Assembly (NCBI GenBank): GCA_027568095.1
Contig: GCA_027568095.1_4956.1
Reading direction: 5' to 3' (one strand)
DNA from: a phage
DNA: 58,547 bases
Shown: piece by piece, positions 2,459-46,299 of the stretch
How the letters are laid out: every line of letters starts with the position of its first letter
Numbering within the stretch: position 1 is the first letter of the stretch
Notes under the pieces: model-generated
Told to the model about the DNA's origin: nothing
The model's database searches: none
What the model saw: only the letters and a program-made list of their open reading frames with translations
Program-made: the position numbers and the translations under genes

Positions 2459-3145
2459 ACTTCTTTAAAAACGCTATTATTTATCGTCTGACTAACACGA
2501 TGGCATTAATGGCCCAGTTACCAACGCTGGAAGACAGTCTGTGTGCGTTTCAATTCATGTGGTTCACAGGATATGGCGCGTACTGGATGGATTCCGGCAA
2601 CTGAACAACATCATACACTGGTTCACCAGGCTAACGGGTTGATCGTGGTTGATGCGTCTAGTGCTAAACGGGCTGAAGATGCGTTAGCGCTGTTGCGTAA
2701 ATCCTTGAGTAGTCTGCCTGTAGTCCCACTGACAACTGAAAACCCTGTTGAACTGACAACAACGGAGTGGGTACGTTCAGGAAACGCGCCAACAGGTTTT
2801 ACAATGGGTGACGCTGCTGAACTGAAAGCAGTCCTGACTGACGGCGGTGTTGCACGCGTTAAAAAACAGGATTTAACCAGTGATGAAATAGCCACACATA
2901 TTGAAGCCGGGAAAGTCGTTACAAAACTGGCGATGGACTGGCAGCAGCGGGTAACGTTTACGCTAACTGACAGCATGACGTTAAACCGTGTGAAATTCTG
3001 CGACGAACTGATGTGCCAGAACGACGATGTTGACCTTGAAGACAGTCTGGTACGATTCGACGCTGATTTTGTACTGATGACAGGTGAACTTTCAATGCTG
3101 ATTAAACAACTTATCACTGCTTTGGGTGGGGAGGCTAAACGATGA
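2455..3145 (+). CDS. rdgC: RdgC-like recombination-associated protein, reading frame interrupted by a 1-nt shift near 2540-2545
   Basis: N-terminus [13 protein letters not shown] in frame A from ATG 2455 (resembles the RdgC N-terminus as recalled); [11 protein letters not shown]...[28 protein letters not shown] in frame +1 (track ORF 2543..3145); frames join if one nt is removed in the TGTGTG tract. Confidence 0.5.
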
Positions 3146-5007: not shown

Positions 5008-5775
5008 ATGAAAAAGAATATTTTTAAAGAATTTGCTGATGCAATGGGTAGTTTACGCGAGGCTGTTGATTATCTTGCTAAACACGACGTTAAAATTTCA
5101 GTTGGTCGTTATAATGAATGGATGGCTGGCAAGCAGTACCCACTGGCTACCACGCTTAACGTCATCATGAAAAAACTTGGGTTACCGAATCTGGACCCGG
5201 TGATTGATGTTGGTGAGGTTGTTCTTAAACGCACAATACCAGTTACCGAACTGCGTCAGAAATTACCACACAGACGTTTTGCTAATAACTACTGGCAACG
5301 TGTCAGATACGTTGATTCACAGATCCTGGAAGCTGTTCACGGTCACGACGTGTGGACACGGTTTGAGGCGATGTGCGGTAATTTTGAATGTGCAAGATAC
5401 GTGTTACGCAGGAATTTAAACAAACACACAATTACTGACAGTTGGATTCAGAATGGTTTGCGCCGGGGCTGGATCCCGGAATGTGTAAACGTAATGGTCG
5501 ATTTGCTTGAAAAATACGAAGGCACTGGGACACCGTTTAACGTGATGGTTTGTGAACCACCTGTAGCACGAGTGGAACCACCTGTAGCACGAGTGGAAGC
5601 ACCTGTAGCACGAGTGGAAGCACCTGTAGCACGAGTGGAAGCACCTGTAGTCGATGTCAGCGATTTGAAGGAGAAAATCAGACTGTATGCGTTATCACAC
5701 AATCCTCATTGCGATGTAGATAATATGCCGGATGATGTTGTTTTGATGATGTATAAAGATATGATGGGCCAATGA
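5008..5775 (+). CDS. hypothetical protein with in-frame PVARVE tandem repeats
   Basis: Strong RBS; 21-bp repeat x about 4.6 encodes (E)PPVARVE units. Confidence 0.5.
   Translation: MKKNIFKEFADAMGSLREAVDYLAKHDVKISVGRYNEWMAGKQYPLATTLNVIMKKLGLPNLDPVIDVGEVVLKRTIPVTELRQKLPHRRFANNYWQRVRYVDSQILEAVHGHDVWTRFEAMCGNFECARYVLRRNLNKHTITDSWIQNGLRRGWIPECVNVMVDLLEKYEGTGTPFNVMVCEPPVARVEPPVARVEAPVARVEAPVARVEAPVVDVSDLKEKIRLYALSHNPHCDVDNMPDDVVLMMYKDMMGQ
5554..5655 (+). repeat. 21-bp tandem repeat (gaa[c/g]cacctgtagcacgagtg) x about 4.6, in-frame coding
   Basis: Direct inspection of 5554-5655. Confidence 0.8.
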
Positions 5776-5779
5776 AGAT

Positions 5780-5804
5780 AGCGGGGCTAACTACCCCGCT
5801 TTTT
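5780..5804. terminator. bidirectional intrinsic terminator between convergent genes
   Basis: AGCGGGG-CTAACTA-CCCCGCT + TTTT between stops at 5775 (+) and 5806 (-). Confidence 0.6.
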
Positions 5805-5805
5805 G

Positions 5806-6144
5806 TTAACAGAAGGGTTCGTTTTTCCAGTCACCATCCTGTTTAAGTATGTAAGGTTGATAATCTGTTTCACCCGTTTCAACATGTTCCAGATTACCCT
5901 GACGATTCGTTTTAAACTTACCCAATGGTAAATACTGACGCGGGAAAACGTTATGCCATTTACCGTATTCGGTATCTTTTCCATCTTTGTATTTAACGGG
6001 ACCACACGCTGAACATAATCGTTTACCTTTCCTTTCAGGTGCATATGACCAGTCGTATAATTTTTCAAAGAAGCCGTTAAATCCCTGAGAAGACAGAGCG
6101 GTGTTTTCAACACATCCACAGTTTTCACATTGAAACAAACTCAT
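5806..6144 (-). CDS. zinc-ribbon protein (CxxC...CxxC)
   Basis: ORF with CENCGC and CSACG cysteine pairs. Confidence 0.45.
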   Translation of the reverse strand: MSLFQCENCGCVENTALSSQGFNGFFEKLYDWSYAPERKGKRLCSACGPVKYKDGKDTEYGKWHNVFPRQYLPLGKFKTNRQGNLEHVETGETDYQPYILKQDGDWKNEPFC

Positions 6145-6207
6145 CGATACACCTCATAGAAAACGTGCGCTACATAGAGCGCACTGATGAATAGTATGAA
6201 CAGGTAG

Positions 6208-6462
6208 TTATTCACTTTTCAGGCACTCTATGCAAGTGTCGTTGATAAAGTGATGTTTGTGGTTGCTGAGGCTTTCGAACTGGCGGTTAGTCGTGTCACA
6301 ATCGTCTGCTATTTTGTCTAGTATCCCGTAAGAATGAGAAACTAGCGAATTAAACTCGTCATCACTGGTTACCGGTACAGGGACAAATCTAATCCCGACA
6401 TGTGCAAGACTATTTGCCATTTCAAGACATTTGCGTATTTCTACAGGCGATGCTTTATTCAT
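6208..6462 (-). CDS. hypothetical protein (84 aa)
   Basis: GGAG RBS 8 nt upstream of ATG 6462; abuts stop of HD gene. Confidence 0.45.
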   Translation of the reverse strand: MNKASPVEIRKCLEMANSLAHVGIRFVPVPVTSDDEFNSLVSHSYGILDKIADDCDTTNRQFESLSNHKHHFINDTCIECLKSE

Positions 6463-6464
6463 GA

Positions 6465-7034
6465 TCACAACTCCCCCATCGCTTTAACCAGTGCGTCGTA
6501 GTGTTTGTCAAACGCGGTCAACTGGACGTTCGTTAGTTTGTATTTGGCTTTAAACAATTCACGCTCAACAAGCGCGTATAACTCCTGATTACTTGCGTCT
6601 GACAGGTGAGCAAGCATGAGTTGTTTTTCAGCCAGGTACGTTACAGCAAACTTCGGATCATGTCGGACAATTGAAGATGTGTTATCCAGCAGATCACACA
6701 GTTTTATAGTTTTCACCACAGGTTCAGCCCGTGATAAATGGTCGATGTCCCGTGCTTTACGTTTAACACGGTTGCCGTGGTGTGGACGACTCACATCAGT
6801 AAGCTGATCAATATAACGTGCCACAGTCTCACCGAACTGCGAACACACATCACCCACGGTCACGGGAGTATCTTCAACGACGTCATGCAGCCAGGCAGCG
6901 GTAACCATATCCGGCGTACCACCATAGCGTTTAACCAGTTCAGCAACGTTCCGGCAGTGGTTCACATATGGGTCGTTGGTATACTTACGAAGTTGATCAC
7001 CGTGTGCTGCTGTTGCGAATTGTTCAGGTGTCAT
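6465..7034 (-). CDS. RelA/SpoT-type HD-domain hydrolase (small alarmone hydrolase-like)
   Basis: AAHGDQLRKYTNDPYVNHCRNVAELV...DMVTAAWLHDVVEDT matches the SpoT/Mesh1 HD hydrolase motif pattern; AGAGG RBS. Confidence 0.6.
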   Translation of the reverse strand: MTPEQFATAAHGDQLRKYTNDPYVNHCRNVAELVKRYGGTPDMVTAAWLHDVVEDTPVTVGDVCSQFGETVARYIDQLTDVSRPHHGNRVKRKARDIDHLSRAEPVVKTIKLCDLLDNTSSIVRHDPKFAVTYLAEKQLMLAHLSDASNQELYALVERELFKAKYKLTNVQLTAFDKHYDALVKAMGEL

Positions 7035-7189
7035 GATGGTTGTACCTCTGTTTGTTTTTCTGCCTTCAACACCATGCGAGAACCATCATCCAGTTCCCAC
7101 GCGATCTCACCACCTTTAACATCGCGCATTTTTGCCAGCATGATAGTTTTTGATAGTGGTGAAAAACCAAGTTGAAGTTTAGTGCTCAT
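7031..7189 (-). CDS. small protein (52 aa, below track cutoff)
   Basis: ATGA overlap with HD gene start; fills gap between 7192..7464 and 6465..7034. Confidence 0.35.
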   Translation of the reverse strand: MSTKLQLGFSPLSKTIMLAKMRDVKGGEIAWELDDGSRMVLKAEKQTEVQPS

Positions 7190-7191
7190 AT

Positions 7192-7464
7192 TCAATACCC
7201 TTTTAATTTTCTACACTCAGGACAGCGCCATCTACCTTTTTGGTAAACTCGCGCATGACCACGTTTACATTTATTGGTTACCAGTGATATACCGAGAAGT
7301 GACGCTTTAATGTGCACCGCTTCAACGTCACGGCGAAGGTAATACGCTATTTCGTCCGCACTGATCTTCCCCGCATTAATTTTTAATAACGCCAGATCTC
7401 GTGCGGACCATTTCAAACCGTTACGAGGGAATCTGTTAGTTGTATCAGTTGAATGTTCATACAT
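7192..7464 (-). CDS. hypothetical protein with C-terminal zinc ribbon
   Basis: ORF; C-terminal CKRG...CPEC. Confidence 0.45.
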   Translation of the reverse strand: MYEHSTDTTNRFPRNGLKWSARDLALLKINAGKISADEIAYYLRRDVEAVHIKASLLGISLVTNKCKRGHARVYQKGRWRCPECRKLKGY

Positions 7465-7977
7465 TCACCATCCTTTGCGAAGCTGTATGGCGAATTCACG
7501 AACTATTTTAATATCCTTGTCATCCCACAAAAGACCGTTTAAATAATCACCGAAAGTATCCACCCCCTGCGCCCGGACTTCAGCCAGGAAAGCATCGGTG
7601 GCTGGGGTGTCTGATTGCATAGACTTTGCGCGATAGTCATTCCACCCTCTTGCATACATGGGATTAACTTGCACTCCATCTTTTACGCAATATGCCTGCC
7701 CTCCACGGTTGATAACCTGGATTTCGTCCATAGCGCCAGACTTCAGCCTCGTATTCTCCGCCGCCAGCGCCGAAAACTTCTCGTGTGCCAACTTAACAGC
7801 TGCATCAGCCTGCTTAATTGACTCAATCGTTTTCTGTTGGTCTTCGGACAGAGCCGAAATCTTAGCCTCCGCTTCAGCAAATTTACGCACCAGATATTCA
7901 GCATTTGTTTCGTTAACCTTTAAATCTCGTGGGATGCATTTACCACGAAGAAAACCTTCCATTTCATATACAGTCAT
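7465..7977 (-). CDS. hypothetical protein (170 aa)
   Basis: GAGGTG RBS 6 nt upstream of ATG. Confidence 0.5.
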   Translation of the reverse strand: MTVYEMEGFLRGKCIPRDLKVNETNAEYLVRKFAEAEAKISALSEDQQKTIESIKQADAAVKLAHEKFSALAAENTRLKSGAMDEIQVINRGGQAYCVKDGVQVNPMYARGWNDYRAKSMQSDTPATDAFLAEVRAQGVDTFGDYLNGLLWDDKDIKIVREFAIQLRKGW

Positions 7978-8214
7978 TTAACGCACCTCGACATCAATCA
8001 TTAAATCTTCTGGTACTGTCACCACAACGCGGTCGTTTTCGCAAAATGGTGATAGCGGTTCCTCTTCCGGTTGTAAGCGAAGGGTAAGTGTTGCCCCGTG
8101 GTAATTGATATAACGCACCCAATACCAGTCGTTAAATACTTCAATCTTGTCACCCGGTTTAATATTACGGGCAACGGTTGGATTCATCAGTCGGATAGTC
8201 ATACTTTCACCCAT
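7978..8214 (-). CDS. hypothetical protein (74-78 aa)
   Basis: Two candidate ATGs (8214 or 8202); 8202 forms ATGA overlap with upstream stop. Confidence 0.45.
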   Translation of the reverse strand: MGESMTIRLMNPTVARNIKPGDKIEVFNDWYWVRYINYHGATLTLRLQPEEEPLSPFCENDRVVVTVPEDLMIDVEVR

Positions 8215-8493: not shown

Positions 8494-8613
8494 TCACATA
8501 ACGAACGTAATTATTAAATTCACCCCCCCGTGATCATGGTATTTAATGATCACTGTTGCTTCTGGTGGCATTTTCTTTAATTGTTTAATCAACTCACGTA
8601 CTGTCACAGTCAT
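8494..8613 (-). CDS. small protein, possibly truncated at a C7/G7 homopolymer (8523-8529)
   Basis: ATGA overlap with upstream gene; with one extra G the frame would run to TAA at 8426-8428, abutting the next start. Confidence 0.3.
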   Translation of the reverse strand: MTVTVRELIKQLKKMPPEATVIIKYHDHGGVNLIITFVM

Positions 8614-8771
8614 TTCTTCTTACTCCCGGTTACTTTAGCAATCCAATAATTTTCATTAACGCTGGGAAAACTGTTATTGAACTTACACTGACGTTCTTCT
8701 TCTTTTGTCAACGGTTTAAATTTAGAACGACAGGTCAACGTACCGTAAATTGATGTTAAGTTGTCTGACAT
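8610..8771 (-). CDS. small protein (53 aa)
   Basis: GGAG RBS 7 nt upstream of ATG 8771. Confidence 0.4.
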   Translation of the reverse strand: MSDNLTSIYGTLTCRSKFKPLTKEEERQCKFNNSFPSVNENYWIAKVTGSKKK

Positions 8772-8947: not shown

Positions 8948-9712
8948 TCACTGGTAATCCTTCAATGCTTTTAACGCTTCAAACTGTTCAGTCGTTAGTT
9001 CGATAAGAATTTTACCGTCTCCCCGAGGTGCCACAGACCATCCGCCACGGATTGCTTCCACTGCAGATCGTACCAGTTTAGCAGGCGGACGACGCGTGAC
9101 TACTGGTTCTTTATCACCTGCTTTAAACTGGCGAATGGCTGCTGATGCACTAATTTCACCGTTCTGAATACGACGTTTAAGTTCCAGTGGCATATCAAGA
9201 ATATTCAGTTGTTCGTAAACATGTTGGACGGTTTTACCAACCTGTGTAGCAATCTGCTCAACACTCATGCCATATGAACGGAAACGACCGTAAATAACAG
9301 CACGTTCAACAGGCGACCACGGTTTACCCTCGTTACCTTTTAACAGTGTCAGGGTCTGTTGCAGTTCGTCACCGGACGATTCAACAACGTCTACTGTCAG
9401 AATCGGCGTCCCGGCTTCAATAGCTGCTAACACGCCACGTAAACGATGCTCACCATCCTGAACATATGGAACACCGTCAACAACCTGTACCACGATGGGT
9501 GGAACGAAATCGCCGTTGGTATAAGCCTGACGAAAGTTTTCAATGTGTGCCAGTGCTGCTTCAGTTTCCCAGTAGTTGTCGGTAAACACACCGCGTGGGT
9601 TATGCCCTGGACGAATCTTGATAATACGCGGATCAATACGATACGCATTACCACGTTTTACATTGGTTTTATCGGTATCAGATAGCTTGCGAAGGGAGTT
9701 AATGTTAGCCAT
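8948..9712 (-). CDS. ParB-like nuclease domain protein with C-terminal HTH
   Basis: DGEHRLRGVLAA ParB/Srx-type motif; later SVEQIATQVGKTVQHVYEQL HTH-like. Confidence 0.55.
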   Translation of the reverse strand: MANINSLRKLSDTDKTNVKRGNAYRIDPRIIKIRPGHNPRGVFTDNYWETEAALAHIENFRQAYTNGDFVPPIVVQVVDGVPYVQDGEHRLRGVLAAIEAGTPILTVDVVESSGDELQQTLTLLKGNEGKPWSPVERAVIYGRFRSYGMSVEQIATQVGKTVQHVYEQLNILDMPLELKRRIQNGEISASAAIRQFKAGDKEPVVTRRPPAKLVRSAVEAIRGGWSVAPRGDGKILIELTTEQFEALKALKDYQ

Positions 9713-9746: not shown

Positions 9747-9775
9747 ATTATCGGGGAGGGTTGGCAATCTGTCAA
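9747..9775 (-). promoter_or_regulatory. conserved-family promoter (TTGACA-17-GATAAT) for ParB-like gene
   Basis: Reverse complement of 9770-9788 is AAAATAATTCTTGACA; -10 GATAAT at 9752..9747; overlaps stop of upstream gene. Confidence 0.5.
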
Positions 9776-19710: not shown

Positions 19711-20610
19711 ATGGCACAGAAAGAATCTTTTGTAACTCCGGTTGGTCGTCTGGTTGGCGGTTCTTTTTTCGATATCAACACTCATGACCACGAAAATAAA
19801 CCGTTAGCACCTGAAAAACACAACTGGTGGGTTGGTCTGGCGTTTCCTAAAACAGCGGCGAACTGGTGGGAAGAACAAGGTGAACTGGGTGCGGTATTCC
19901 AGGCGATCATGCGAGCGGCTAACTCACACTATGTGAACGGCGAACCACAACAACCCACTTTCGCATGGAAAATTATTAATGGTGACGATCCGAAACATGC
20001 GAGTAAAACTGGTTATGCTGGTCACTGGGTAATTGGTTTCTCACGCAACGTGGCTATTGACGCGTGTCCGGTTTATAACGCAGCGTACCAGCTAGTTATT
20101 GATAAAAATCTGGCGAAAAAAGGTTATTATTACCGTATCAGCGGATCATCTGTTGCAAACGGTCGTACAGGTAATCAGGCTGGTGTGTATATCAACATGG
20201 AAATGGCGCAATTGCTTTATGCAGGTGAAGAAATCATTTCCGGTCCGGCTCCTGCTTCTGTGTTCGGTGCTGCTCCTGCAATGCCTGAAGGCGCACGTCC
20301 GATCGGCGTAACACCAGCGGCAGCACCTGTAGCAGCACCTGTAGCAGCGGCAGCACCTGTAGCAGCGCCTACACCAGCGGCAGCACCTGTAGCAGCGGCA
20401 GCACCTGTAGCAGCGCCTACACCAGCGGCAGCACCTGTAGCAGCGCCTACACCAGCGGCAGCACCTGTGAAGGTAATGACTGAAAAAGCAGGTGGTGCTA
20501 CTTACGAACAGTTTATTGCGCAAGGTTGGAACGATGAACAACTGATCGCTAATGGTTATATGGTAATGACCACCCCGGCCCCGAATTTTCTCAACGGTAA
20601 CGGTTACTGA
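19711..20610 (+). CDS. possible ssDNA-binding-like protein with PA-rich repeat linker and C-terminal FIAxGWND motif
   Basis: Follows the nuclease gene; (AAPVAAPTPA)n repeats then YEQFIAQGWNDEQLIANGY; SSB assignment is inference. Confidence 0.4.
   Translation: MAQKESFVTPVGRLVGGSFFDINTHDHENKPLAPEKHNWWVGLAFPKTAANWWEEQGELGAVFQAIMRAANSHYVNGEPQQPTFAWKIINGDDPKHASKTGYAGHWVIGFSRNVAIDACPVYNAAYQLVIDKNLAKKGYYYRISGSSVANGRTGNQAGVYINMEMAQLLYAGEEIISGPAPASVFGAAPAMPEGARPIGVTPAAAPVAAPVAAAAPVAAPTPAAAPVAAAAPVAAPTPAAAPVAAPTPAAAPVKVMTEKAGGATYEQFIAQGWNDEQLIANGYMVMTTPAPNFLNGNGY
20311..20468 (+). repeat. imperfect 27-30-bp tandem repeats (core gcagcacctgtagcagc), in-frame
   Basis: Direct inspection; core occurs about 7 times. 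Confidence 0.7.
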
Positions 20611-45375: not shown

Positions 45376-46299
45376 TTGACTAAACGAAAAACAGAACATG
45401 AAAGACTTTCAGAGATTTCAGAAATTTGCAAAGGTACTATTTATCATTTTGTTAGATTCTTAAATGGTTACAAGAATGCATCAAGTAGACTAATAATGCA
45501 TTGTCAAAAACATGGTGAATGGGAAACATCCTCTGATTTGATAGTGAATGGTAGAAATTTTTGTAAGAAATGTAGTAATGAGAACATAGCACTAAAAAAT
45601 AGTATAGACCAAAAAGAATATGAAAAACGTATCACTAATATTTGTAACTCGCGAGGTTATAAATTTATAAAATGGATTGAAAATTATCATGGTGTTCGCA
45701 CAAAAGCATTAATAGAATGTACTAAACATGGTCAGTGGGTGTCTTCCGGCAACAACATTACTATAAATAAAAGTTTCTGTAAGAAATGTTATTTTGAAAA
45801 TAAAAAGACACCATTACATATAAGAGAAAAAGAGATAAATGAAAAATGTTTGTCATTAAATTATGAATTTTTGGGTTGGGTCAATGGGTATGTTAATCAA
45901 TACAGTAAGATAAAAATTAAATGTCAAAAACATGGTGAATTTATAACAACACCTACAACATTATTACATACTGGCAGACGTTGTGCAGGTTGCGCTACAA
46001 CAGGTTTTAAAATCAAAAACAAAGCTAGCTTATATGTTTTAAGATCTCTATGTGGTAGTTATGTTAAAATAGGTATTAGCAACAATGTTGAAAATAGAAT
46101 AAAAATATTGAAGAAAAGAACACCTTTCGAATTCAATGTTATTGAAATATATAATTCTGATGGTAAAACCATTCGTTCACTTGAAAAAGATTTTCATTCT
46201 CATTTTGAGTCAGCAGAGTTGACTGGGTTCGATGGTTGTACTGAGTGGTTAAAATGGAATCCAAATATAACCACTCTAATACGTATAATCACGGGATAA
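45376..46299 (+). CDS. GIY-YIG/T5orf172-like nuclease domain protein with three Cys-rich repeats
   Basis: C-terminal LYVLRS...YVKIGIS...R...E pattern; three CxKHGxW...CKKC repeats; visibly AT-rich. Confidence 0.5.
   Translation: MTKRKTEHERLSEISEICKGTIYHFVRFLNGYKNASSRLIMHCQKHGEWETSSDLIVNGRNFCKKCSNENIALKNSIDQKEYEKRITNICNSRGYKFIKWIENYHGVRTKALIECTKHGQWVSSGNNITINKSFCKKCYFENKKTPLHIREKEINEKCLSLNYEFLGWVNGYVNQYSKIKIKCQKHGEFITTPTTLLHTGRRCAGCATTGFKIKNKASLYVLRSLCGSYVKIGISNNVENRIKILKKRTPFEFNVIEIYNSDGKTIRSLEKDFHSHFESAELTGFDGCTEWLKWNPNITTLIRIITG

Follow-up and report, generated by a model that had tools for sequence, protein, structure and literature searches.

The 58,547-nt stretch of phage DNA analysed here, hereafter the window (NCBI GenBank assembly GCA_027568095.1, contig GCA_027568095.1_4956.1), is a nearly complete 9NA-like siphovirus genome (placed in either Sashavirus or Nonanavirus, depending on the source) and carries at 6465..7034 on its minus strand a gene for a stand-alone, single-domain small alarmone hydrolase (SAH). 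Judging from its sequence and predicted fold, the 189-residue product is most probably an active, metal-dependent 3'-pyrophosphohydrolase of the PaSpo type that erases alarmone-type growth arrest. The protein is 98.9% identical (two residues differ) to Bas82_0088 of Escherichia phage KarinMuster_Bas82 (58,508 bp), a member of the BASEL collection. A first-pass annotation, made from the letters of the window, had marked an open reading frame (ORF) with an HD-domain pattern at exactly this position as a RelA/SpoT-type small alarmone hydrolase. Both the 189-codon ORF and the motifs are borne out, the translation including AAHGDQLRKYTNDPYVNH ... VTAAWLHDVVEDT as well as AAWLHDVVEDT and KLCDLLDN, and the reading itself is supported by all of the sequence and fold tests that we ran.

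The profile search against the RelA/SpoT HD family that the first-pass annotation had called for was positive. Pfam HD_4 (PF13328) matches residues 5-127 (E=1.3e-14) with 54.7 bits, the gathering score being 27.2, and NCBIfam TIGR00691 (spoT_relA) matches with E=2.3e-20, the match being confined to model positions 4-122 of 687, which correspond to the hydrolase domain. The NCBIfam models of long RSH proteins give scores far below cut-off, over their N-terminal 120 positions only, PHROG 990 ("metal-dependent phosphohydrolase") is matched with E=2.7e-38, and the generic HD model gives a weak match (22.9 bits). HD_4 and HD are the only models matched, with no synthetase, TGS or ACT domain in the 189-residue protein. 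Sequence comparison with the PDB recovered Listeria Lmo0812 (E=5.6e-15, 59 bits), human MESH1 (E=2e-13, 54 bits, 27% identity) and the hydrolase domains of Rel, RelA and SpoT (E=1e-11 to 1e-9), with weaker matches to the Pseudomonas aeruginosa SAH (PaSAH; E=3e-5, 28 bits) and to Aph1 (7SMG; E=0.009, 20 bits). All significant matches in sequence and in fold (E <= 0.01) fall within the RSH family.

The residues expected of an active hydrolase are retained. In an alignment of the window protein with 47 database homologues, H11, R16, K17, Y18, T19, Y23, H26, H50, D51, E54, D114 and N118 are invariant in all 48 sequences, and D55 is conserved in at least 90% of them. The invariant positions include the His and Asp residues that would coordinate the metal (H26, H50, D51 and D114), the loss of which the first-pass annotation had named as evidence against its reading. 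H50, D51, E54 and D55 align with H61, D62, E65 and D66 of MESH1 and with the HDVIEDT motif of SpoT, and D114 and N118 align with MESH1 D122 and N126; the numbering and the residue roles for MESH1 follow Sun et al. 2010. The same catalytic residues stand at matching positions in the hydrolase domain of Escherichia coli SpoT, where R16 aligns with the Arg of the "QTRS" motif and K17 lies opposite a Ser; R16 and N118 are thus common to the window protein and SpoT, and the Arg-Lys pair together with N118 is found again in the PaSpo SAH of phage SSU5.

An AlphaFold2 model computed on the 48-sequence alignment has a mean pLDDT of 97.4, a pTM of 0.92 and 11 helices. When it was compared with the PDB using Foldseek, all 50 of the matches listed were RSH-family structures, among them MESH1, PaSAH, Corynebacterium glutamicum RelH, a Leptospira SAH, Lmo0812, SpoT, Rel and RelA, the best being MESH1 (TM 0.77-0.81, rmsd 2.0 A over 169 columns). 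The gene is a real one under purifying selection, its differences from all four orthologues compared being overwhelmingly synonymous: dN/dS is 0.04-0.07 in comparison with the orthologues of Bas82, PDP46 and AVIO78A, and 0.08-0.11 in comparison with Salmonella phage FSL SP-062, at a dS of about 0.5. No catalytic residue shows an amino-acid change among the four orthologues compared.

Substrate preference within the family can be approached through the contacts to the purine base. In Thermus thermophilus Rel the guanine is held by stacking of R43/R44 together with S45, N150 and T153, and in the (p)ppApp-specific Aph1 an Asp replaces R43 (PMC10083569). By motif position, R16-K17 and N118 of the window protein may be taken as the counterparts of R43-R44 and N150. 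The Aph1-type signature, an Asp in place of the guanine-contacting Arg and a compact fold of 8 helices, was not found here, R16 being invariant and 11 helices being predicted, in a comparison that covered the D24 position and the helix count out of a signature to which R96, D116, R119, K133 and Y134 also belong. Because the Arg-Lys pair and N118 are kept, the window protein is not a (p)ppApp-only enzyme of the Aph1 type, and we expect that it accepts (p)ppGpp.

Of the characterized enzymes, the nearest to the window protein is the PaSpo SAH of Salmonella phage SSU5 (SSU5_099), with 51% identity over residues 6-147 (145-residue alignment, 136 bits, E=2e-45). This score stands above those for Lmo0812 (59 bits), MESH1 (54), the PbcSpo SAH of Salmonella phage PVP-SE1 (gp220; 30 bits, 36% identity over 73 residues), PaSAH (28) and Aph1 (20), and we accordingly class the window protein as PaSpo-type (Atkinson 2011; Jimmy 2020), PaSpo being one of 11 SAH subfamilies, an assignment that follows best pairwise scores rather than a phylogeny or subfamily hidden Markov models. 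It and the SSU5 enzyme are both stand-alone HD_4 proteins of enterobacterial phages with all catalytic and base-contacting residues in common, both have a C-terminal helical extension past a core of about 167 residues, and neither has a toxSAS (toxic alarmone synthetase) gene beside it. They differ in length (213 residues in SSU5, 189 here), the C-terminal 40 or so residues being barely alignable, and in their setting, SSU5 being a temperate phage of about 103 kb with relatives deposited as plasmids of about 100-115 kb, as opposed to the 58.5-kb 9NA-like siphovirus of the window. Whereas neutralization of toxSAS by SSU5 PaSpo has been demonstrated experimentally, the corresponding role of the window protein is proposed from homology.

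Stand-alone phage SAHs as a kind have been known, and partly tested, since 2020, so that no new principle is added here; it is this branch of proteins that is uncharacterized and inconsistently annotated. Jimmy et al. (PNAS 2020) described such enzymes and tested those of PVP-SE1 (PbcSpo) and SSU5 (PaSpo), both of which neutralized all of the toxSAS tested (CapRel, PhRel, PhRel2, FaRel2 and FaRel) on co-expression in E. coli, and their discussion proposed that phage SAHs bypass abortive infection based on alarmones or toxSAS (PMC7229694). SSU5 PaSpo has since been reported to counter FaRel2 by taking the modification off the tRNA, even at leaky expression (PMC11559606 and preprint). The product of most toxSAS toxins is a tRNA with a 3'-pyrophosphorylated CCA end, and MESH1 and ATfaRel restore aminoacylation of such tRNA in vitro (bioRxiv 10.1101/2021.04.30.441581). 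A paper of 2025 discusses a comparable gene of a Pseudomonas phage (PMC12846349).

The window protein shares with PVP-SE1 gp220 and with the C. marina antitoxin ATfaRel the architecture of a single-domain RSH hydrolase carried on a mobile element. Gp220 nevertheless belongs to a different SAH subfamily and has an Asp at the position of Arg16, and ATfaRel is the cognate antitoxin within its operon, as opposed to the orphan gene here. The Asp of gp220 (locus L017, 36782-37291) sits at the guanine-contacting Arg position and is the same substitution as in Aph1; the two tested phage SAHs may therefore differ in nucleotide preference. Human and Drosophila MESH1, the best structural match, has the same metal ligands and ED pair and hydrolyses (p)ppGpp and (p)ppApp as well as repairing pyrophosphorylated tRNA (PMC10083569; bioRxiv 10.1101/2021.04.30.441581), although it is a eukaryotic cytosolic enzyme of 27% identity for which NADPH is the proposed physiological substrate. 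E. coli SpoT and Rel share the HD_4 domain and the motifs HxxQxR...PYxxHP, HDxxEDT and KLxDxxxN, but in these proteins of about 700 residues the synthetase, TGS and ACT domains regulate the hydrolase, whereas the phage protein is a bare hydrolase. PaSAH (PA0431, PDB 6YVC), which degrades (p)ppGpp and (p)ppApp (PMC10083569), and C. glutamicum RelH are likewise orphan SAHs of the same fold; these are, however, chromosomal enzymes with housekeeping roles or acting against toxins of type VI secretion systems, and their sequence similarity is weak (E about 3e-5). Aph1, from a temperate phage of Bacteroides, is another phage-borne 3'-pyrophosphohydrolase with the HD_4 fold, distinguished by its guanine-excluding D24/R119 signature, its 8 helices and its tetramers from the window protein with its Arg and 11 predicted helices. 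Lastly, two other phage countermeasures, ATD1 of the MazG type and Gp8, the portal protein of T7, have the same proposed outcome, less alarmone signalling during infection, through unrelated folds and mechanisms: ATD1 is a MazG pyrophosphatase, while Gp8 binds to the synthetases RelA and SpoT and inhibits them.

The primase gene of the window has counterparts of 96.6-97.8% identity in nine other phages, among which the SAH is unevenly distributed. It is present in six, all associated with E. coli (Bas82, PJ16, AVIO78A, PDP46, 536P12 and BDX09P1), and absent from the Salmonella Kentucky phages Sasha, Sergei and Solent, the primases of which are 97% identical. More distant relatives with the gene are FSL SP-062 and SP069, giving a total of eight of about 20 9NA-like phages, while neither 9NA itself nor its relatives from Klebsiella, Proteus and Morganella appeared among the close matches or the best 60 tblastn matches. 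Across these genomes the SAH is a patchy, recently exchanged accessory gene, and such patchiness is typical of genes for host interaction and counter-defence.

Beyond the clade the family is large: 1,863 database proteins match at E <= 1e-5, those outside the clade being about 50-60% identical and about 167 residues long. At the same threshold tblastn found matches in 286 of 50,697 phage records, many of them jumbo phages of Pseudomonas and Erwinia or phages of Rhizobium, and 365 plasmid records had matches, mostly on plasmids that are non-mobilizable. The enterobacterial plasmid relatives listed, from Klebsiella, Enterobacter, Escherichia and Salmonella, are about 100-115 kb in size and show about 42-50% identity; we take these records to be SSU5-like phage-plasmids, a group that seems regularly to carry a PaSpo SAH. 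The closest database match falls in a 90%-identity cluster of 344 members, several of them on contigs of about 56-61 kb. A 189-residue member of this cluster, on a 56.8-kb contig, is deposited as a protein of Salmonella enterica serovar Anatum and probably represents a 9NA-like phage genome co-assembled with, or carried in, a bacterial assembly. One Burkholderia homologue labelled as chromosomal adjoins the lysis cassette of a prophage, and another homologue lies beside a terminase gene in a phage contig. An origin of the gene from the host was considered and rejected, as blastn against 5,426 complete E. coli genomes returned nothing and the nearest enterobacterial relatives, about 50% identical, are on plasmids.

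For the course of an infection we propose the following scenario. The SAH gene, situated on the strand of the replication genes and downstream of them, would be transcribed together with the ParB-like gene, its product presumably being made alongside theirs. Since the regulatory domains of SpoT and Rel are missing, the enzyme is expected to be unregulated and constitutively active once made. A metal ion (Mn2+ by analogy) would be held by H26, H50, D51 and D114, with E54-D55 activating the attacking water and R16-K17 and N118 holding the purine base. Removal of the 3'-diphosphate would convert (p)ppGpp to GDP or GTP and, very probably, (p)ppApp to ADP or ATP, and would probably turn the 3'-pyrophosphorylated tRNA left by toxSAS toxins such as CapRel back into chargeable tRNA. 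The first-pass annotation had named two roles, the breakdown of (p)ppGpp or (p)ppApp and the neutralization of toxin or defence systems based on alarmone synthetases, both of which the literature proposes for phage SAHs, and had overlooked the pyrophosphorylated tRNA as a substrate. The arrest relieved in this way would take two forms, the stringent response of the host and abortive-infection defences built on toxic alarmone synthetases.

Which of these forms has kept the gene under selection is a separate question, on which our answers are weaker. Counter-defence against toxSAS is a serious possibility, held at rather less than even confidence, and what favours it is the uneven occurrence of the gene together with the way the SSU5 enzyme behaves. 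Prophages of Salmonella and E. coli carry CapRelSJ46 and its relatives (PMC9712102), and we count in favour of this role that the phage could not fall back on tRNA genes of its own: neither tRNA nor tmRNA genes were found in the whole window, nor any Rfam family at gathering thresholds. Relief of (p)ppGpp-mediated restriction is possible on somewhat lower confidence, favoured because (p)ppGpp is universal and the guanine contacts are conserved, and we give a smaller share of belief to the two roles, which do not exclude each other, being of comparable importance or to some other role. We also suggest, tentatively, that the main substrate in infection could be host tRNA with a CCA end pyrophosphorylated by a CapRel-type toxSAS of a prophage, and not a free alarmone. 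If so, the SAH would be a tRNA-repair counter-defence gained and lost by a tRNA-less phage lineage as it follows the defence repertoire of its hosts.

Several observations weigh against the proposed enzyme and its counter-defence role. The tested SSU5 enzyme is no more than 51% identical to the window protein, from which it differs in the last 40 or so residues; three close relatives (Sasha, Sergei and Solent) manage without an SAH. In the portion of the BASEL study that deals with KarinMuster, the phage shows no extra robustness to the defence systems tested, among which toxSAS apparently did not figure (bioRxiv 10.1101/2024.09.12.612763). The substrates of SAHs can also surprise, MESH1 acting on NADPH (bioRxiv 10.1101/2021.04.30.441581) and appearing in the Foldseek matches as crystals with PAPS. 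The major capsid protein of the window has no detectable similarity to Gp57 of SECphi27, the trigger of CapRelSJ46, and a link to that known trigger was dropped, the capsid comparison having given nothing to infer from.

Among other explanations, the one that survives best is that the enzyme purely reprograms host physiology, degrading the (p)ppGpp made by RelA and SpoT with no role against dedicated defences, so that rRNA and tRNA synthesis, translation and DNA replication are kept running, especially in starved hosts. We regard this as a credible minority view. The residues for contact with guanine, R16-K17 and N118, are conserved here as they are in ppGpp hydrolases, and R16 and N118 are shared with SpoT; (p)ppGpp is made by every E. 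coli cell whereas toxSAS are sporadic; and the SAH gene and the replication genes belong to one strand block. Some phages are restricted by the stringent response, against which T7 has evolved a countermeasure, its portal protein Gp8 inhibiting RelA and SpoT (PMC13483052 and preprint). A benefit as general as this predicts a core gene, however, and the SAH is patchy among near-identical genomes, while its closest tested relative is a potent neutralizer of toxSAS across the board even at leaky expression.

Much less probable is a non-alarmone substrate with a 2'- or 3'-phosphate (NADPH, pAp/PAPS or pGpp), the removal of which would shift redox or nucleotide pools. The best structural matches of the model are human MESH1 complexes with NADPH and PAPS, MESH1 has been reported to be an NADPH phosphatase (bioRxiv 10.1101/2021.04.30.441581), and an orphan bacterial SAH is described as metabolically promiscuous (PMC9765508). 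The window protein is nonetheless much closer kin to phage PaSpo (136 bits) than to MESH1 (54 bits), it has kept the Arg-Lys purine pair along with the entire Rel-type motif set, and no known benefit to a phage is tied to dephosphorylation of NADPH.

Several mobile elements use an SAH as a type IV antitoxin or an immunity protein (PMC7229694; PMC10083569), and the window protein could in principle be the partner of a toxic alarmone synthetase of the phage itself, in the manner of FaRel-ATfaRel or Apk2-Aph1, yet this is largely refuted and very unlikely. No RelA_SpoT synthetase domain was found in the flanking ORFs and ten other unannotated ORFs of at least 159 amino acids, a scan that did not take in every small ORF of the window; no synthetase is annotated anywhere in the near-identical Bas82 genome, and no toxSAS lies beside the homologues in four other loci. 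The SAH is an orphan and not half of a toxin-antitoxin pair.

Equally improbable is an unrelated HD job (a dNTP triphosphohydrolase, a cyclic-nucleotide phosphodiesterase directed against CBASS, Pycsar or type III CRISPR, or the "polyphosphate hydrolase" of some GenBank records) or a dead binder: HD domains serve many functions, the generic HD model does match at the level given above and relatives carry the "polyphosphate hydrolase" label, but the significant matches are all to the RSH family, the RSH-specific R16-K17, E54 and N118 are invariant with D55 close to it, PADLOC-DB models of defence systems gave no match at E <= 0.01, and the strong purifying selection on catalytic residues speaks against a dead binder.

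The anti-arrest hydrolase that we propose has been named in several ways in public records, and our results correct these. Bas82 has "metal-dependent phosphohydrolase" and PJ16 "polyphosphate hydrolase", a label that goes back to the COG0317 name "guanosine polyphosphate pyrophosphohydrolases". The label "RelA/SpoT family (p)ppGpp synthetase" of PDP46_0095 (locus L011, 3501-4070) is wrong, because the protein has no synthetase domain, and in AVIO78A (AVIO78A_101 and _102; locus L012, 3271-4070) "polyphosphate hydrolase" is attached to the DUF7446 gene while the HD gene is a "hypothetical protein". The relevant portion of the BASEL paper describes KarinMuster and its relatives as having no recognizable additional locus for supplemental functions and does not discuss the SAH (bioRxiv 10.1101/2024.09.12.612763), a remark that the present finding qualifies.

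In the literature searched we found no demonstration of a phage SAH aiding its phage in an actual infection, the evidence there being from plasmid co-expression. The occurrence of a PaSpo-type SAH in a small phage with a near-identical relative, KarinMuster (Bas82), that belongs to a standard collection and grows on E. coli K-12, together with the natural SAH-minus relatives Sasha, Sergei and Solent for comparison, makes it directly testable whether such an enzyme acts in infection by lowering (p)ppGpp or by repairing toxSAS-modified tRNA. Should the tRNA-repair reading be true, this would be the first direct demonstration of a phage SAH defeating toxSAS immunity in a real infection.

The features on which these statements rest are collected in Table 1. 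The minus-strand block that holds the SAH gene begins downstream of the genes for helicase and primase. The start codon of the SAH gene overlaps the stop codon of the upstream DUF7446 ORF (ATGA at 7034-7031, by sequence reading), a Shine-Dalgarno-like element precedes it, and the downstream DUF1382 ORF begins 3 nt past its stop codon if an ATG start is assumed or overlaps this stop if the start is GTG. Given these overlaps and spacings, the gene is probably part of a tightly packed string in which it is translationally coupled to its neighbours.

Table 1. Positions of the SAH gene, its key codons and the neighbouring features in the window.
Feature	Position	Strand	Remarks
SAH gene, 189 codons, ATG to TGA	6465..7034	minus	single HD_4 domain, PaSpo-like
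R16-K17 codons	6984..6989	minus	base-contacting Arg-Lys pair of (p)ppGpp hydrolases; align with MESH1 R24-K25
H26 codon	6957..6959	minus	first metal ligand; aligns with MESH1 H35
Codons 50-56 (HDVVEDT)	6867..6887	minus	HD metal ligands and ED catalytic pair
Codons 114-118 (DLLDN)	6681..6695	minus	last metal ligand D114 and N118
GAGG Shine-Dalgarno-like element	7045..7048	minus	10 nt upstream of the SAH ATG; read from the sequence
DUF7446 ORF, 54 amino acids	7031..7195	minus	upstream, overlapping the SAH start; Pfam DUF7446
DUF1382 ORF	6208..6468	minus	downstream; Pfam DUF1382, 79 bits
ParB-like gene	8948-9712	minus	just downstream of the candidate promoter
Candidate sigma-70 promoter, TTGACA-17-GATAAT	9747..9775	minus	upstream of the ParB-like gene; best site, 11/12
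GC-rich hairpin between convergent genes	5780..5800	.	terminator scan
Weaker terminator-like hairpin	6165-6184		terminator scan

The transcription unit with the SAH gene probably starts at the candidate promoter in front of the ParB-like gene, and the minus-strand unit probably ends at the GC-rich hairpin. Overall, the promoter and terminator scan yielded no more sites than expected from shuffled sequence, and only the best promoter and the hairpin between convergent genes were used; the AVIO78A record annotates a promoter at the position homologous to the former, and Sasha and AVIO78A have terminators annotated at the place homologous to the latter. After the ParB-like gene come about eight small ORFs, then DUF7446, the SAH, DUF1382 and a Cys-rich ORF of 112 amino acids. 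The first-pass annotation had placed the gene in an "early minus-strand block" among small Zn-ribbon proteins. The minus-strand block stands, "early" resting on co-orientation with the helicase, primase and ParB genes; as to the Zn-ribbons, CxxC pairs do occur in the nearby ORFs at 5806-6144 and 7192-7464, which have no Pfam match, while the immediate neighbours are the DUF7446, DUF1382 and EaE-like ORFs and are not recognized zinc ribbons.

The stretch from parB to the terminator is variable, Sasha having three small genes (gp78, gp79 and gp80) and no SAH. The arrangement of DUF7446 followed by the SAH recurs in Bas82, AVIO78A and SP-062, whereas in PDP46 only the last few codons of the DUF7446 gene remain upstream; in an alignment with Bas82_0087 the DUF7446 ORF of the window shows a 27-residue in-frame internal deletion and is otherwise 96% identical. 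A conserved two-gene module of DUF7446 and SAH was rejected, the pairing being seen within this phage clade only, and so was a general partner gene, as the small upstream ORFs in the Burkholderia prophage and in the metagenomic phage contig are unrelated to DUF7446. The EaE-like ORF of the same block (7465-7977, minus strand) has 92-95% DNA identity over about 7560-7980 to P22-like and Stx-converting lambdoid phages. Its neighbours belong to families seen here mainly in lambdoid and P22-like phages, DUF1382 (6208-6468) and DUF2737 (8610-8771). This similarity points to recent gene exchange between the 9NA-like phage and temperate enterobacterial phages.

Some further features of the window were noted. 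Convergent with the SAH operon is the ORF at 5008-5775 (plus strand), encoding a 255-residue protein, which contains a 21-bp tandem repeat at 5554-5650 (4.6 copies, 98% matches) translated as PVARVEA heptads; its Sasha homologue gp81 contains an annotated "direct tandem repeat region". The ORF at 2543-3145 (plus strand, 200 residues) matches RdgC at model positions 131-298 of 298 only (222 bits) and is an N-terminally truncated RdgC-like gene, the missing part of which was not found in the ORFs upstream of it. At 45376-46299 (plus strand) an ORF of 307 residues, on the strand opposite to the main flanking ORFs, joins a CapR-homology domain to a MUG113/T5orf172 nuclease domain; its product is possibly a nuclease of the mobile or homing type, and an "endonuclease" of about its size, Bas82_0047, is annotated in Bas82 beside the tail assembly chaperone genes. 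Finally, nested tandem repeats of 12, 18, 30, 48 and 78 bp at 20315-20468 lie within the ORF at 19711-20610 (plus strand), which, judged by where it stands in the replication module, appears to correspond to Bas82_0067 (Gp2.5-like single-stranded DNA-binding/annealing protein); it is 900 nt long as opposed to 1032 nt in Bas82, and the copy number of the repeats probably varies between isolates.

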